From: Cyanobacteria bacterium P01_D01_bin.156
Lineage (GTDB): Bacteria; Cyanobacteriota; Cyanobacteriia; Phormidesmidales; Phormidesmidaceae
NCBI GenBank assembly: GCA_039024555.1
Contig: JBCCQQ010000040.1
Coordinates: 1 to 56,973 of the forward strand
Direction: 5' to 3'
DNA: 56,973 bases
The notes under the pieces are model-generated. The model did not search any database. It was not told the origin of the DNA and saw only the letters and a list, made by a program, of their open reading frames with translations. Shown here piece by piece: positions 18,737-25,835 of this stretch; positions within the stretch are counted from its first letter, which is position 1, and each line of letters starts with the position of its first letter. A program made the translations under genes and the position numbers.

Positions 18737-19321
18737 ATGACGATTGCTACCAATAAAACGCTGACTCTCGCAGAGTATCTGACCTATGACGACGGTACAG
18801 GGACTCGTTATGAGTTGGTGGACGGGGTACTAGTGGAAATGCCGACCGAGAGCCCGATTAATAAAACCATCGTCATGTTCTTGGTAAGCTATTTCTTGCG
18901 ATTAGGAATTCCCTATCATCGACTTGCTATCGGTCATCAGCTAGAGGTTACTTCTGAAAAAGTATCTGCCCGAGAACCAGATTTAATTTTGCATTCGGAG
19001 AAATCTGCCGCTGCAATTTTGCAAGACGGTAAGCTGTTGCGTCTGGGCATGCCGATACCGGATTTAGTGGTGGAAGTGGTATCCAGTAGTGACACGGACC
19101 AAAAATCTCGAGAGAGAGACTATGTAGAAAAGCGAGAAGAGTATTCAGAACTTGGGATACCGGAGTATTGGATTATAGATCCAGTGGCGTCGGTTATTTT
19201 AGTTTTGACTCTGGCAGATGATAAATACCAAGAACGTAAATTCCAAAATAACGAAATAATATTGTCCAGCTTTCCTAAAACAGATCTTACTGCTGCTCAA
19301 ATATTAAAAGCTGGCCTTTGA
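18737..19321 (+). CDS. Uma2-family endonuclease-like protein
   Basis: YELVDG.LVEMP, PDLVVEVVS, GIPEYWIIDP. Confidence 0.93.
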   Translation: MTIATNKTLTLAEYLTYDDGTGTRYELVDGVLVEMPTESPINKTIVMFLVSYFLRLGIPYHRLAIGHQLEVTSEKVSAREPDLILHSEKSAAAILQDGKLLRLGMPIPDLVVEVVSSSDTDQKSRERDYVEKREEYSELGIPEYWIIDPVASVILVLTLADDKYQERKFQNNEIILSSFPKTDLTAAQILKAGL

Positions 19322-20701: not shown

Positions 20702-21025
20702 ATGATTTTAACAACTACTGACACACTTCAAGGACAAAATATCCAACAATACCTGGGTATTGTTACCGCTGAAGTGGTCTATGGCAGTAACATGCTCCGC
20801 GATTTCTTCGCTGGTATCCGGGATGTTTTGGGTGGCCGCACTGGCTCCTATGAACGTATTTTTGAACGGGGTCAGCAGGATGCGCTTAAGGAGTTACAAA
20901 AACGTGCTCAGCAGATGGGTGCAGATGCTGTCATTGGTATTCAGATAAAAACGGACACGATTAATCTGGATGAAACTGGCGTGCTAATGCTGATTACGGC
21001 AAGTGGTACAGCTGTAAAACTGTAG
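20702..21025 (+). CDS. YbjQ / UPF0145 family protein
   Basis: RDFFAGIRDVLGGRTGSYE, GADAVIG, ASGTAVKL. Confidence 0.93.
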   Translation: MILTTTDTLQGQNIQQYLGIVTAEVVYGSNMLRDFFAGIRDVLGGRTGSYERIFERGQQDALKELQKRAQQMGADAVIGIQIKTDTINLDETGVLMLITASGTAVKL

Positions 21026-21074
21026 GTATGGAAAAACTGACTGTCGAGAATCTCGAACGCGTAATTGCCAGGTT

Positions 21075-21305
21075 TTAGAAGACACGGATTTTATCCTCTA
21101 AAACAGGCTGTCTTAAATGTTCTTTGATGGCGTCTTCTGTGTCGAGATCTACTGGATACTGGAGCACATCTTGCAGACATAGCCTGATTTTACTCACACC
21201 AAACAGCCCAATTGGACGGGAAAATTCTACGAGGCAGTCGATGTCACTGTTGGCAGTTGCTTCGTCTCTGGCAAACAAATAGGGACTGATGGCACGGTTA
21301 AGCAT
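21075..21305 (-). pseudogene. Degenerate minimal nucleotidyltransferase (MNT antitoxin-like)
   Basis: LFARDEA..SDIDCLVEF..VDL; the GS of LFGSxAR is missing, the N-terminus is truncated and no HEPN partner is adjacent. Confidence 0.7.
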
Positions 21306-21334
21306 TAGACATTATCTATCGTAGTGAGTCGTTG

Positions 21335-21367
21335 ATAGGAGGAGACAATATCAGAGGTCTCTCCTAT
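21335..21367 (+). promoter_or_regulatory. Hairpin overlapping the transposase start codon
   Basis: ataggaggagac-aatatcagag-gtctctcctat pairs with one bulge and includes AGGAGG and the AT of ATG. Confidence 0.45.
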
Positions 21368-22130
21368 GTCAAGGAAACCAAGAATATTACAGGCCAATTT
21401 TTGTTATCACATTACGATGCGGTGTAATAACCGAGAATTTCGACTGACGCGCTATGAATGTCGCTCGGTGTTGTTGTATGCCATTCAAAAATGTCGAGAG
21501 ACCTATGGGTTTAAGCTCTATGCCCTATGCATTATGAGCAACCACGTGCATTATCTGTTGGAACCCCAGCAGCCGGAGGATTTACCCAAAGTTATGCACT
21601 GGCTCAATTGGTATACGGCTATGTGTTTTAACCGCATGTTGAATCGTACCGGACATTTTTGGGAGAAGCGGTATCACAGCAGCGGGTTTTCAAATACGGA
21701 TGCTCGACGGGTGCTGAATACCATTCGTTATATCCATGGCAATCCCAAGGCGGCCAGTATGCAGCAGGGCTTTTTCTATGATTTTAGTAACTACGGCACT
21801 TACGAACGATTGACCCAGGATGGCATTACCCAATGGCATCCTGCATTTATGGCGTTGGGGGCTACGTTAGAACTATGTGCTGAGGCATATCGGCGGTTTT
21901 GTCAGCGGTATAAGCCGAAGCCCAAGCCAGAAAAGCGTAACCACTGGGGAAGTAAATTGCTGGCACGGGTAAAGCTAAAGGGTAAACCGAAGAAAAAGAC
22001 GAGCCCTGGGCAAAAGTCATTGTGGCAGGAATGGGATGCCCCCATGGAAGAAATCCAGACGGTGGCTGAGAAATTTGTCACAGCAAATGCCCTGAATCCC
22101 GAAATAGCAAGGTGCCAGGTATTGAATTGA
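21366..22130 (+). CDS. HUH Y1 tyrosine transposase, RAYT-like (IS200 superfamily)
   Basis: YHITMRCNNR, CIMSNHVHYL (HUH), GHFWEKRY, TIRYIHGNP (catalytic Tyr); no tnpB beside it. Confidence 0.9.
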   Translation: MSRKPRILQANFCYHITMRCNNREFRLTRYECRSVLLYAIQKCRETYGFKLYALCIMSNHVHYLLEPQQPEDLPKVMHWLNWYTAMCFNRMLNRTGHFWEKRYHSSGFSNTDARRVLNTIRYIHGNPKAASMQQGFFYDFSNYGTYERLTQDGITQWHPAFMALGATLELCAEAYRRFCQRYKPKPKPEKRNHWGSKLLARVKLKGKPKKKTSPGQKSLWQEWDAPMEEIQTVAEKFVTANALNPEIARCQVLN

Positions 22131-22207
22131 TAAAACGGCGAGGATTGGTATGTAATGGCGGTGTTTAAGAAAGTTTAGATCGGGCTGAAGTGCTTATATG
22201 CTACAGT

Positions 22208-24541
22208 TCACAAGCCTGGATGCGAGAGAAGAGAACAGCCGCCACAAAGAGGAGACGCCAGAGGAGACGCCGCCACCGTCGGCAAATTCCCGACAGGAGA
22301 TTTTTCTAATAGGCTAAATTGAAATTCCGAATAGGTCACGTACTTAGCCTCACGGCGCCAGCCGATGCGATCGCAAAAATCATACCAAATTTCGTTACCT
22401 GGATATGATCCATCCAACAATGCACCACAGTCTGCATAAATATTTTTCTGAACGCTGAAGCCAAAATGTCCCTGACTATAGTTCACCCAGAGCCGATCAA
22501 TCACTCGTAAATCTGCACAAGGAAAGTTACGAATATCATCTAGGTCCAGATACCCTTTTTGATCCATATCACCAACTGCTTTTATTAAGCTATAGGTTTC
22601 CTGATCGGCTTCTCTCCACCGCTGGGTTTGCAAATAATAGGCCAGCTTAAAATATCGAGGCGTTACTCTATCGGCATAGGTAAAGTCTTCCTTCTCTAAT
22701 ATCCGTAACGGCTCCTGGAGTTTTTCCCGCAAAGCCGCCTGCACATCAGCCTCCACAGTTACTGCACTCTGCCAAAATTCAGTGGCCAAGAGTAACTTGT
22801 CAAAACTTGGATCGGCTAACGCTGTCTCAATCAACTGGGTGGCATTCCCTTGGGCTGCATACAGTTTCATCGTTTCTGACCACCAGGCTAGCTTTTCCTC
22901 ATCGTCAAATACCTCCAGCAGACAAGCTTCCTGGTGAGTATCTTTGATCTCTACGGCAGCTAGATATTCCTGAAAGCTTAGATGGGCAAATTCAAATTCA
23001 CCTTCTTGCTCTTTAGCAATCAGGGCATCCACCTCTTGCAACCGCTTCAGAAAGTCTTCCGGTGTAAATTGTACCTGGGGTAAATTAGCCAGCTTTTCTT
23101 TCAATACAGGGGCAATATCCGCCAAAGTAAACTTGCGGGTGTTACGTTGCATTAGCTCTAAACAAAGGGGTTGTAAAATAGCCTGTTTTTGACTGGCAGT
23201 CAGCACATCGGACATCCCCTTTGCCTGTGCACGTTTTTCCAAGAGCACCTGGCAAATGTCTCGGTATAGCTCCACCCGATTTCGAGGGATGCTGCCACGA
23301 CGACGATGTACCGTAGCAATCATGGTAAGCAACAGCGGATTTTCTGCCAGATCTTTTAGGACATTGTTATTATCAATTTCCTGAAGCAATAGCTTTGATT
23401 GACGGTCAGCAGCTTCTCTCACCCCCAAATCTTCATGCCCTTGGGCTTTAATTTCAGTCTCCCGATACCACTGATTTACAAAGTCTTGAATCTGACCCGA
23501 TGTTAAGGGAGCAACTTCTAGTACGGTCACCCCTTCTTTTAGCTGAGCGTGCTTATATCCCAACGGACGCGAGGTCAAAATAAACGCGGTTTCTGGATAT
23601 TCATACATTTGTCGATCAACCCAGCGGCTCACCTGTTTACGGTCTTGTTCATCGGCGACTTCATCTAAACCGTCAAGTAAAATCAGCAGACGTTTTTGTC
23701 TTAGCTTTTTGGCAAACCAGTCTTTGGGTGGCCTTAGCGGATCAGTTTGTTGTAAATTTTGAACCCAGTCAGTTAATAGATCTGGCAGCACTAGATCTGG
23801 ATTTTCAATAATTGGTTTGTACACGTCTCGCAAATAAAGCAAGACAGGAATGTAATCGGGTGCTTTTGGATAGATGCGACGCGGTTTTCGCAGGGCATAC
23901 ATCAGGGTCATGTACCGCATCAGTGTGGTTTTGCCCGACCCCGGTGCTCCTAAAATCGCCAGACGACGATAGGCCAGGTCTTTTTTCATCAACGCCAGGA
24001 AATGACCGATGGTATTCTCACGTGGCAGATCTTGTTCGCCTTTAGCTCTAATTTTGCGAATTAGTCGGGTAGAAACCTGGGCAATACTCTTGGCTGTAAC
24101 ATTGACCATCACCACGACCTGTTGCAGATTTAGGATGCGTTCCTGGTCAAGTCCCTGGGTTTCAAAGTTACGACACAGATAATTCAGCCGTTTGTAGTAT
24201 TTTCCTTCAAAGTCTGATGTAAGCTCCCACCAGTGTTGAGAAAGCCATTTGCGCAAGGCATCGAACACTGTACCGATTAGCGACAAAAGAAAATAGAAGA
24301 CCTTAAACAGTCCTTTTGCCGAGGCTTTGCCCAGCTTTTCCATTTCTTGCTCGGCCTCGGTCATAAAGGCACCGCTGTATTTGGCCCACAGCACTGAGCA
24401 ACCTGTTAAAAAGGCAGCAATGGCTGTCTGTGTCGTATCTTGCTTCCATAGAAAGCCAGCAGTGCTAACGAGCCCTGCCCCAAACGGCATCCAAGTAACA
24501 CAGGCTTGCAGCGGCTTTGGAACTGATTTAGGCTTTGCCAT
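22208..24541 (-). CDS. NACHT NTPase - GUN4-domain protein with N-terminal hydrophobic helices
   Basis: GAPGSGKTT, LILLDGLDEV, NPLLLTMIA, FAHLSFQEYLAA; GUN4 WREADQET, FPCADLRVIDRLW..S.GHFGFSVQK, PVGNLP. Confidence 0.93.
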   Translation of the reverse strand: MAKPKSVPKPLQACVTWMPFGAGLVSTAGFLWKQDTTQTAIAAFLTGCSVLWAKYSGAFMTEAEQEMEKLGKASAKGLFKVFYFLLSLIGTVFDALRKWLSQHWWELTSDFEGKYYKRLNYLCRNFETQGLDQERILNLQQVVVMVNVTAKSIAQVSTRLIRKIRAKGEQDLPRENTIGHFLALMKKDLAYRRLAILGAPGSGKTTLMRYMTLMYALRKPRRIYPKAPDYIPVLLYLRDVYKPIIENPDLVLPDLLTDWVQNLQQTDPLRPPKDWFAKKLRQKRLLILLDGLDEVADEQDRKQVSRWVDRQMYEYPETAFILTSRPLGYKHAQLKEGVTVLEVAPLTSGQIQDFVNQWYRETEIKAQGHEDLGVREAADRQSKLLLQEIDNNNVLKDLAENPLLLTMIATVHRRRGSIPRNRVELYRDICQVLLEKRAQAKGMSDVLTASQKQAILQPLCLELMQRNTRKFTLADIAPVLKEKLANLPQVQFTPEDFLKRLQEVDALIAKEQEGEFEFAHLSFQEYLAAVEIKDTHQEACLLEVFDDEEKLAWWSETMKLYAAQGNATQLIETALADPSFDKLLLATEFWQSAVTVEADVQAALREKLQEPLRILEKEDFTYADRVTPRYFKLAYYLQTQRWREADQETYSLIKAVGDMDQKGYLDLDDIRNFPCADLRVIDRLWVNYSQGHFGFSVQKNIYADCGALLDGSYPGNEIWYDFCDRIGWRREAKYVTYSEFQFSLLEKSPVGNLPTVAASPLASPLCGGCSLLSHPGL

Positions 24542-24576: not shown

Positions 24577-25137
24577 TCATGAAGTCTCAATCCCGCGATA
24601 CAGGTCAACAACTGCAAATTCCAAGCCAATACTGGTCAAAACAACCGTATCGTCCTTTTTATAAATTACCGATTCCCAATTACCCGCAACCGTGCACCGC
24701 CAACATTCCACCTGCTGACTCTCTTGAGAAATCAAGACATACTCTTCCAAAGAATCAAGCAATTGATAATCCTTAAACTTATCGCCACAGTCAAATACTT
24801 CAGTGCTTGGCGAAAGCACCTCTGCAATCAGCTTTGGATAACGCTTAATATAGCGATCTTCCCGATCTCTCTGATCACAGGTAACAAAAGCGTCAGGGTA
24901 GTAGAAAAAGTCATCTAAATAATTAACCTTTACATTGCCCGCATGAAACCGGCAAGCGGACGAATTCCCCAAGTGATTATCAATAATTTTAAGCAAATTA
25001 AACGCGATACGCTCATGGTTATCCGTGCCCCCGGCCATGGCATACACCAACCCCTGCCGATATTCATGGCGTATCTGGCTTTGAGACTCCAGAACCAGAT
25101 ACGCTTTAGGACTGATGTAATGGGGAACGGCCATCAT
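24577..25137 (-). CDS. Uma2-family endonuclease-like protein
   Basis: YYPDAFVTCD, PKLIAEVLSPST, EYVLISQ. Confidence 0.93.
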   Translation of the reverse strand: MMAVPHYISPKAYLVLESQSQIRHEYRQGLVYAMAGGTDNHERIAFNLLKIIDNHLGNSSACRFHAGNVKVNYLDDFFYYPDAFVTCDQRDREDRYIKRYPKLIAEVLSPSTEVFDCGDKFKDYQLLDSLEEYVLISQESQQVECWRCTVAGNWESVIYKKDDTVVLTSIGLEFAVVDLYRGIETS

Positions 25138-25265: not shown

Positions 25266-25835
25266 CTACTCTAGTAGCCAATTCATCATGTCTTGCATAG
25301 TTAACCGCATGTCTGCTGCAAACGCGGGCACTGGCAAAGTCTCATCGGGGACTTCCATATCAAACACCTGCAACGAAAAACCCATCCTGTAGACAAACAT
25401 TGTTTGCTCATCTGGGTCAATCAACCAGCCTATCTGAGTACCGTGCTTTAGACAGTGCAACAATTTTTTAGTCACCTTAGTTTGATTCTGATCCGGTGAC
25501 AATATCTCAATGGCCCAGTCTGGAGGAATCAAAAACTGATTAGCAATGATGCCATCCGGCTCACGGGGAATATTGCCCCATTCAAATACCGCCACATCGG
25601 GAATGATCGAACGCCCACTAAAGGTACATCGCAATTCTGGAAATGCTCGCCCCGTGCGCCCAGGCTTTAAGGCCATTTCTACCGCCATGGTCAAATCCCG
25701 CTGCACCGTGCTGTGTTTTCCCTGGGGCATTGGCTTCTGGCTAATGTATCCGTCGATGTATTCGCTAGCAGGCTTAGTCTCTGGCAATGCCAGAAACGCC
25801 TCAAGAGTAATCGGTTTAGTCGGTGCTTGGACCAC
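25266..25835 (-). CDS. Uma2-family endonuclease-like protein
   Basis: LPETKPASEYIDG, PDWAIEILSPDQ, GWLIDP. Confidence 0.93.
   Translation of the reverse strand: MVQAPTKPITLEAFLALPETKPASEYIDGYISQKPMPQGKHSTVQRDLTMAVEMALKPGRTGRAFPELRCTFSGRSIIPDVAVFEWGNIPREPDGIIANQFLIPPDWAIEILSPDQNQTKVTKKLLHCLKHGTQIGWLIDPDEQTMFVYRMGFSLQVFDMEVPDETLPVPAFAADMRLTMQDMMNWLLE

Follow-up and report, generated by a model that had tools for sequence, protein, structure and literature searches.

The window analyzed here is the whole 56,973-nt stretch of DNA, a contig of Cyanobacteria bacterium P01_D01_bin.156. The target gene lies on its minus strand (22208..24541) and encodes a 777-aa protein with a NACHT NTPase domain (aa 192-361) and a C-terminal GUN4 domain (aa 627-757). 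It is faced on the plus strand by a gene for a 254-aa Y1/HUH transposase-like protein of the TnpA-REP/RAYT kind (21366..22130), in which H60-V-H62 and Y122 are intact. Three similar-sized ORFs resembling Uma2-family proteins lie around the locus (18737-19321, 24577-25137, and 25266-25835; the domain scan covered 24577-25137 only, a PF05685 match), and a short minus-strand ORF with a nucleotidyltransferase domain (21075-21305; PF01909) is divergent from the Y1 gene and absent upstream of the other Y1 copies of this genome.

The target gene ends in a constant cassette (22194..22234, minus strand) with a CT-rich left edge and three short helix-coding frames. The frame in use (...SLLSHPGL) stops at TGA 22210-22208, the LFSRIQACEL frame at TAG 22203-22201, and the FSSLASRLVNCSI frame at TAA 22196-22194, all on the minus strand, with successive stops 7 nt apart. 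An earlier note on this DNA had described this minus-strand reading and its three staggered stops, and both were confirmed by re-reading the sequence. Both other frames were closed within 14 nt in 67 of the 2529 ORFs of at least 300 aa in this genome (2.6%), and stops fell exactly at +7 and +14 in 11 (0.4%), 3 of which are the target gene and two paralogs. Conservation of the cassette is stronger evidence than the rarity of this stop pattern. Of the five GUN4 fusion genes in this genome, four carry the cassette, three of them using the SLLSH frame and one the LFSRI frame, and all four adjoin a Y1 gene or its remnant. No Y1 gene adjoins the cassette-less GUN4 fusion (C121) or the canonical Gun4 gene (C38) of this genome. 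At the TIR-GUN4 paralog (G000:C60:1-950), the insertion of a palindrome-flanked gene for a different RAYT has reduced the Y1 gene to its last 27 codons. Cassette-less GUN4 fusions (C121:4493-4980 and clusters 5 and 10) carry LFSRI-like tails that are stable between strains and are possibly alleles fixed once the Y1 partner was lost.

We collected 87 copies of the cassette, chosen by their likeness to the cassette and a downstream motif and thus a biased sample of GUN4 genes. The first stop was kept in 82 of these and the second in 85, and the third frame was closed at +38, +41, or +47 in 83. The first-stop triplet was TAA in 37 copies, TGA in 35, and TAG in 10, and TGG was never found against about 4 expected (Fisher p 0.004, with kinship ignored). 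Use of the three frames (18, 29, and 22 of 69 readable copies) fits equal thirds (p 0.26). When homolog tails were sorted by pattern, 57 of 105 fell into the three frames (19, 13, and 25), a lower bound, with many of the other 48 being near variants or truncated. Thus the cassette is conserved as DNA and used in different frames, both by paralogs within this genome (3 versus 1) and across loci, and all three tail styles occur in GUN4 proteins, as the earlier note had supposed. One genus, g19, has a rearranged cassette that again places three stops 7 nt apart, the frames being used by 3, 3, and 4 of 10 loci; one protein of this group is labeled Dolichospermum by its source. Some proteins (P0002, P0003, and P0007) carry two or three tandem GUN4 domains, the internal ones ending in different cassette frames that are read through.

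The SLLSH frame lines up with the final helix of solved Gun4; therefore, the cassette derives from the gene itself. This frame is probably the ancestral one. The idea that the alternative tails can also pack as a last helix held up in structure prediction. AlphaFold models of natural LFSRI- and SSLASRL-frame domains, which rest on shallow alignments (22 and 27 rows), both ended in a helix, with pLDDT of ∼64 and 84, respectively. Both superposed on Gun4 crystal structures (PDB 1Y6I, 1Z3X, and 4XKB) to residue 231-235 (Z, 15-16; rmsd, 1.8-2.0 Å over about 123 residues). These comparisons indicate that, whatever the reading frame, the GUN4 fold is completed by the cassette. Since 7 equals 1 modulo 3, a triplicated 7-mer with a stop would yield closure in three frames, and we infer that the cassette originated by such a triplication.

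The left anchor of the stretch upstream of the cassette is G-N-L-P (22280..22291, minus strand; consensus, G-H/E-L/F-P), the proline of which aligns with the conserved GHLP of solved Gun4. Between anchor and cassette, comparison with relatives defined a variable region of 45 nt that is nearly A-free (22235..22279, minus strand) and contains a perfect 12-nt tandem duplication (22248-22271). Across loci, the stretch between the GHLP-type anchor and the cassette ranged from 20 to 148 nt in all three phases and reached 305 nt in one g19 locus. Its composition in 69 GUN4 copies (G, 45%; T, 33%; A, 11%; C, 11%) was equal at all codon positions, and G+T made up 78% of the inserts versus 51% of the flanks. 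Off-frame stops in the inserts numbered 37 and 31, against about 45 expected if the sequence were random. In contrast to the 35 expected, a premature in-frame stop was found in 1 of 74 resolved loci (13 loci were unresolved); further early stops were seen at L046, at L075, and in one unit of L100. We take this as a sign that the open frame is under selection and that variants with an early stop are purged.

Comparison of closely related genes shows that the variable stretch changes far more quickly than the flanking DNA. Four proteins from one Pseudanabaena cluster (P0184, P0186, P0187, and P0189) had 0 differences over 761 aa and ended in four different tails in three frames. The tail differed in 40 of 42 pairs from two Pseudanabaena clusters that were 98.4 to 100% identical; these strains were compared as proteins only, with the Y1 neighbor known just for two query loci. 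Loci L192 and L194 share 90 identical nt on each side of unrelated inserts of 60 and 45 nt, the two tandem units of G071 share their flanks and not their inserts, and an assembly gap in L080 falls exactly on the variable stretch. Inserts of identical genes could not be aligned to each other, and in three pairs the first 3-5 residues of the stretch were alike before the sequences diverged. Turnover is not universal, however, because cassette-type tails were unchanged in two clusters (P0075 and P0057, whose gene neighbors lay outside our coverage) and two Aetokthonos proteins had a single-residue difference only. Two proteins, P0005 and P0125, resemble frameshifted readings of the P0118 insert and may reflect sequencing errors, and cluster 2 was excluded from the counts. 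The proposal in the earlier note that the cassette closes the domain after indels was supported but is incomplete, in that the indels are not incidental: the whole upstream stretch is replaced between near-identical strains.

We then looked for the origin of the inserts. For all four inserts of this genome, the longest match elsewhere in its 149 contigs was 12-15 nt, the same as for shuffled sequences, and the paralog cassettes were the only blastn hits. Words of at least 12 nt were common to 40 of 2346 pairs of inserts versus 29 after shuffling. Copies of an insert's own flanks were found in 2 of 69 inserts (versus 0.1 shuffled) and internal duplications in 6 of 69 (versus 0.5 shuffled). In the likely source run, one contig spanned the variable stretch of the window with no differences and at a depth of 19.4, equal to that of the flanks. 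No within-sample variation of the insert was visible in the contigs of that run, in which rare variants are lost. A contig break at 22186-22202 was probably caused by the cassette shared with the C60 paralog. The stretch of this organism was absent from runs X2 and X3.

The available text of PMC1084334 assigns Leu210, Arg214, and Arg217, in the Gun4 segment after Pro208, to porphyrin binding and describes Arg214 as essential. The target gene lacks this conserved Arg214 segment after GHLP and has the variable region in its place. Because the porphyrin-binding segment of Gun4 is replaced by the rewritten stretch, the product of these fusions is probably a variable ligand sensor joined to immune-type effectors (NACHT, TIR, caspase, kinase, or trypsin-like). 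The partner domains in 14 sampled target proteins were NACHT (4), kinase (3), caspase (2), trypsin-like (2), TIR (1), AAA_35 (1), and none recognized (1).

Downstream of the cassette, a spacer of conserved length and weakly conserved sequence (22123..22193) is followed by a conserved DNA motif, (A/T)TACCTGGCACC (22111..22122, minus strand), 112 nt from the cassette start. In a search over 220 nt, this 12-nt motif was found at 111-112 nt from the cassette in 69 of 72 loci, and within this genome motif and cassette occur together only at the four GUN4 loci. The motif overlaps the last Y1 codons at this locus and lies outside the Y1 coding sequence in the C21 paralog, and we regard it as a putative Y1 recognition site. 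The spacer had no stable fold on either strand (mean z, about -0.2), its folding gave no REP-like hairpin, no column pair within it passed the covariation filter, and Rfam had no match at E up to 1 within 21000-22500. There may be a weak 4-bp stem around the last two stops (at one pair, C-G in 55 and G-C in 11 of 87 copies). The motif at its fixed distance and the facing Y1/HUH gene are what was missing from the earlier note, which to that extent was incomplete.

The Y1 protein matches PF01797 (E, 2.6e-19) and scores below the cut-offs of NF047646 (66.9 versus 80) and NF033573 (24.9 versus 55 bits). H60, H62, and Y122 are each present in at least 95% of 142 Y1 sequences, and the protein is predicted to cleave single-stranded DNA and transfer strands; a search of solved structures gave no sequence match to it. 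Among the best 80 of 382 Y1 relatives from species-representative genomes, 73 face a GUN4 gene within 900 nt; of the other 7, 4 have at most 171 nt of contig left and 2 show the cassette. A sample of 301 genomes from the phylum contained close relatives (E < 1e-60) in 25, this genome among them; such relatives were also present on 5 plasmid records, and no copies were found in viral contigs searched with this query. Y1 and GUN4 distances correlate weakly (Mantel, 0.27). In 77 loci, the 100 nt upstream of the Y1 gene had no conserved column; therefore, there is no left end, and the module is not a two-ended insertion sequence. An IS200/IS605 insertion sequence was rejected on this ground, on the divergence of the Y1 copies of this genome (72-82% identical to each other), and on the NF033573 score.

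Some variable loci lack these neighbors. In genus g19, 7 of 10 have no Y1 match in the downstream DNA examined, and the motif is degenerate there; L089 and L093 lack the motif, yet they differ from each other. Variation at such loci therefore needs action in trans, past activity, or another cause. An orphan cassette with neither motif nor Y1 gene was identical in three metagenome records (L083, L085, and L092), which may be one lineage.

Among more distant Y1 relatives, the motif persists and the facing genes are of other types, namely, cyanobactin precursors, Nif11/prochlorosin precursors, and a secreted protein, all with variable ends. We take the first of these to be cyanobactin-type from their leader and FAGDDAE follower; they match Pfam DUF5840. 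Genus g19 has 13 such copies with 12 different cores, and in 10 of the 13 the motif lies 140 or 143 nt past the core; a further 9 copies came from 30 loci of family f3, and in 7 of these copies the stop is followed by the motif at 111-121 nt. The precursors also form arrays (L112:3567-5068, L114:3353-4978, L121, and L132-L136); most members have the motif at a constant spacing behind them, and it is the final member that faces the Y1 gene. In picocyanobacteria, 8 copies of Nif11 precursors face a Y1 gene, as do 15 copies of a secreted protein of ∼330 aa with RDVRVHD followed by a variable, often Cys-rich tail (L098, L099, L164-L169, L180, L181, L185, and L187-L189). This protein has no Pfam match; in the Atlas, its neighbors include IAT_beta in 43% of members, which is a lead only toward a beta-barrel-like protein. 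One genome (G512) had 10 Y1 matches. The variable regions of the cyanobactin and picocyanobacterial targets have no G/T bias.

In a tree of 142 Y1 sequences (FastTree, midpoint-rooted, no outgroup), with targets labeled by pattern as GUN4 (93), cyanobactin (11), secreted protein (10), Nif11 (2), unrecognized (17), or no room (9), the three main groups sorted by target type, and the picocyanobacterial copies formed a sister group with support of 1.0 under this rooting. The 17 targets labeled unrecognized fit none of the patterns. Several Y1 relatives, most with the motif, face short ORFs or unrecognized genes (L177, L135, L137, L103, L104, and L146/L052), and genes of this kind are possible further targets.

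Taken together, these observations lead us to propose, with a probability of roughly 0.6, that the cassette is the constant half of a targeted diversification module that works without a reverse transcriptase (RT), and that the neighboring Y1 gene is likely its engine. The Y1 protein would bind the motif on single-stranded DNA, cut the sense strand at the left edge of the cassette, within a C|T step, and stay on the cassette side via a 5'-phosphotyrosine. The free upstream 3' end would lose a variable number of bases, gain new ones by untemplated extension or slippage, and be rejoined to the cassette, and variants with an early stop would be lost to selection. An HUH enzyme does not synthesize DNA, and the extension would fall to some host enzyme; the comparative analysis found no source for the new bases. 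The base of this model, drawn from sequence comparison, is the linkage of the two genes, their fixed geometry, the wholesale replacement of the stretch, its random-looking composition, and the selection for an open frame. The retained cassette starts at T positions 0, 2, and 4 in 79 of 85 copies (54, 21, and 4) and at the intervening C positions in 6 (5 and 1). This T-stepped edge fits Y1 cutting because the C|T sites cleaved by E. coli TnpA-REP lie away from where it binds, and that enzyme transfers strands in vitro (PMC3333891, available text). A 5'-phosphotyrosine would shield the edge of the cassette but not the upstream 3' end, in keeping with the three pairs that share only the start of the insert. 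Counting against the model are the variation at loci without a Y1 gene, the uniform insert of the window in its likely source run, the unchanged tails of two clusters, the weak correlation of Y1 and GUN4 distances, the missing REP-like hairpin, the 17 Y1 loci facing no recognized target, and inserts at the other target types that show no G/T bias.

Existing short single-stranded DNA (foreign DNA, replication fragments, or alleles from other cells) might instead be joined into the Y1 nick by capture or recombination, from sources outside the genome or untraceably short. This would require no new polymerase activity, strand transfer of this kind is reported for TnpA-REP in vitro (PMC3333891, available text), and the flank copies and internal duplications exceed those in shuffles. 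We consider such capture unlikely: the inserts of this genome match nothing else in its contigs beyond shuffle level, few words are common to inserts, and the inserts are far richer in G+T than their flanks. Equally doubtful is another route to variation (repair by the host at a G-rich or G-quadruplex hotspot, a trans-acting RT, or single-strand deamination with slippage), with the Y1 gene a passenger that spreads or duplicates the module. Such a route would account for the differences among loci with no adjacent Y1 gene, A-to-G and C-to-T decay of an exposed strand could also produce the G/T richness, and the preprint on procA genes discussed below later notes no strong evidence for or against causation (10.1101/2020.03.09.984088). 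A passenger gene would hardly account for the fixed 112-nt spacing or for a motif common to unrelated targets, however, and the missing left end of a mobile element, the identical orphan cassettes, and the lack of an RT match in this 99% complete genome also speak against it. That the cassette is a mere insertion-sequence end or protein-binding site, with stops and peptides as by-products and tails as neutral debris, is very improbable: although a DNA-level constraint such as the weak stem could keep the stops and a triplicated 7-mer containing one closes all frames automatically, the SLLSH frame matches the last Gun4 helix, the first stop varies and is never TGG, early stops appear to be purged, the rearranged g19 cassette again has three stops 7 nt apart that are all used, and the Y1 copies of one genome are too divergent, at just 72-82% identity, for such an end.

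Extending the Y1-driven model to the other targets, we see an even chance that a domesticated Y1/HUH enzyme is a general diversifier in cyanobacteria, working without RT or template and placing random DNA at a fixed distance from the 12-nt motif, much as junctional diversity arises in antibody genes. At least four unrelated families would have recruited it (GUN4 immune-type sensors, cyanobactin precursors, prochlorosin precursors, and the secreted beta-barrel-like protein), each with its own solution for the frame: a cassette closing three frames, in-frame selection, or a stop within the variable stretch. Only a handful of mechanisms in bacteria diversify a single spot within a gene, and if the mechanism is true, this would be a new class of diversification system. 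Many cyanobacterial GUN4 fusions would also be recast as variable sensors rather than tetrapyrrole sensors.

Diversity-generating retroelements (DGRs) of cyanobacteria and other multicellular bacteria likewise vary a binding domain at the C terminus of NACHT, TIR, caspase, and kinase proteins, as described in the available portions of PMC7517822 and PMC10907252; GUN4 appears only as an N-terminal domain in the former and is absent from the main text of the latter, as far as available. The module is not a DGR, because no RT or template was found in this genome: there was no PF00078 match (99% complete, 149 contigs; controls positive), no template repeat, and no adenine-specific substitution at constant length. 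Unlike in DGRs, the length of the insert changes freely, and the three-frame end is therefore needed. The Y1 protein resembles REPtron/TnpA-REP (RAYT) proteins of subclass 2.1 in its HUH motif and single Tyr, its NHVH and YIHxNP motifs, and its low number of divergent copies per genome, and that subclass is reported to lack REPs (PMC6006769, PMC3333891, and PMC8266576, each in its available part). In contrast to TnpA-REP systems, no flanking REP palindromes (GTAG/GTGG foot, dispersed) were found, and the DNA that varies is part of a protein-coding gene, a set distance away. The available part of PMC6006769 classifies such proteins with no mention of GUN4. The GUN4 domain shares the fold of canonical Gun4 to the last helix and differs in having random sequence in place of the segment after Pro208; fused GUN4 is treated as a tetrapyrrole-binding sensor in the parts of PMC7159879 and PMC8195603 available to us.

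The only precedent for nuclease-driven diversification is one hedged preprint hypothesis concerning a different target, and there is no characterized system. Laurenceau et al. (10.1101/2020.03.09.984088) reported that procA and tnpA_REP genes face each other, put forward diversifying recombination, and stated the link to be unique to marine picocyanobacteria and lanthipeptides; their main text names no shared motif or cut site (supplementary figures lay outside our coverage). The available text of PMC10783134 merely cites this preprint, and that of PMC4663559 describes hypervariability of cyanobactin cores and a single transposase within a cluster but draws no connection between the two. In the literature covered, which mostly excluded subscription journals, we found no account of GUN4 tails or cyanobactin precursors facing this Y1 gene. 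Like the procA-tnpA_REP pairs, the module described here has facing genes, a conserved distance and intergenic DNA, and variation limited to the 3' part of the target, and a relative of this Y1 protein (45% identical) faces a Nif11 precursor with the hairpin of the preprint and the same motif. Unlike those pairs, the target in the window is a NACHT-GUN4 gene rather than a lanthipeptide precursor, the GUN4 form combines G/T-rich inserts with a constant end that works in three frames, and the clade also faces cyanobactin precursors and a secreted protein. The GUN4 form bears on how prochlorosin and cyanobactin cores become so variable. It provides independent support, from unrelated targets, for the transposase-clade idea of the preprint and makes that idea testable: the motif and its distance are specified, a cut step and strand are predicted, and the module occurs in cultured filamentous strains, with Nodosilinea nodulosa PCC 7104 (loci L017 and L065) as one carrier.
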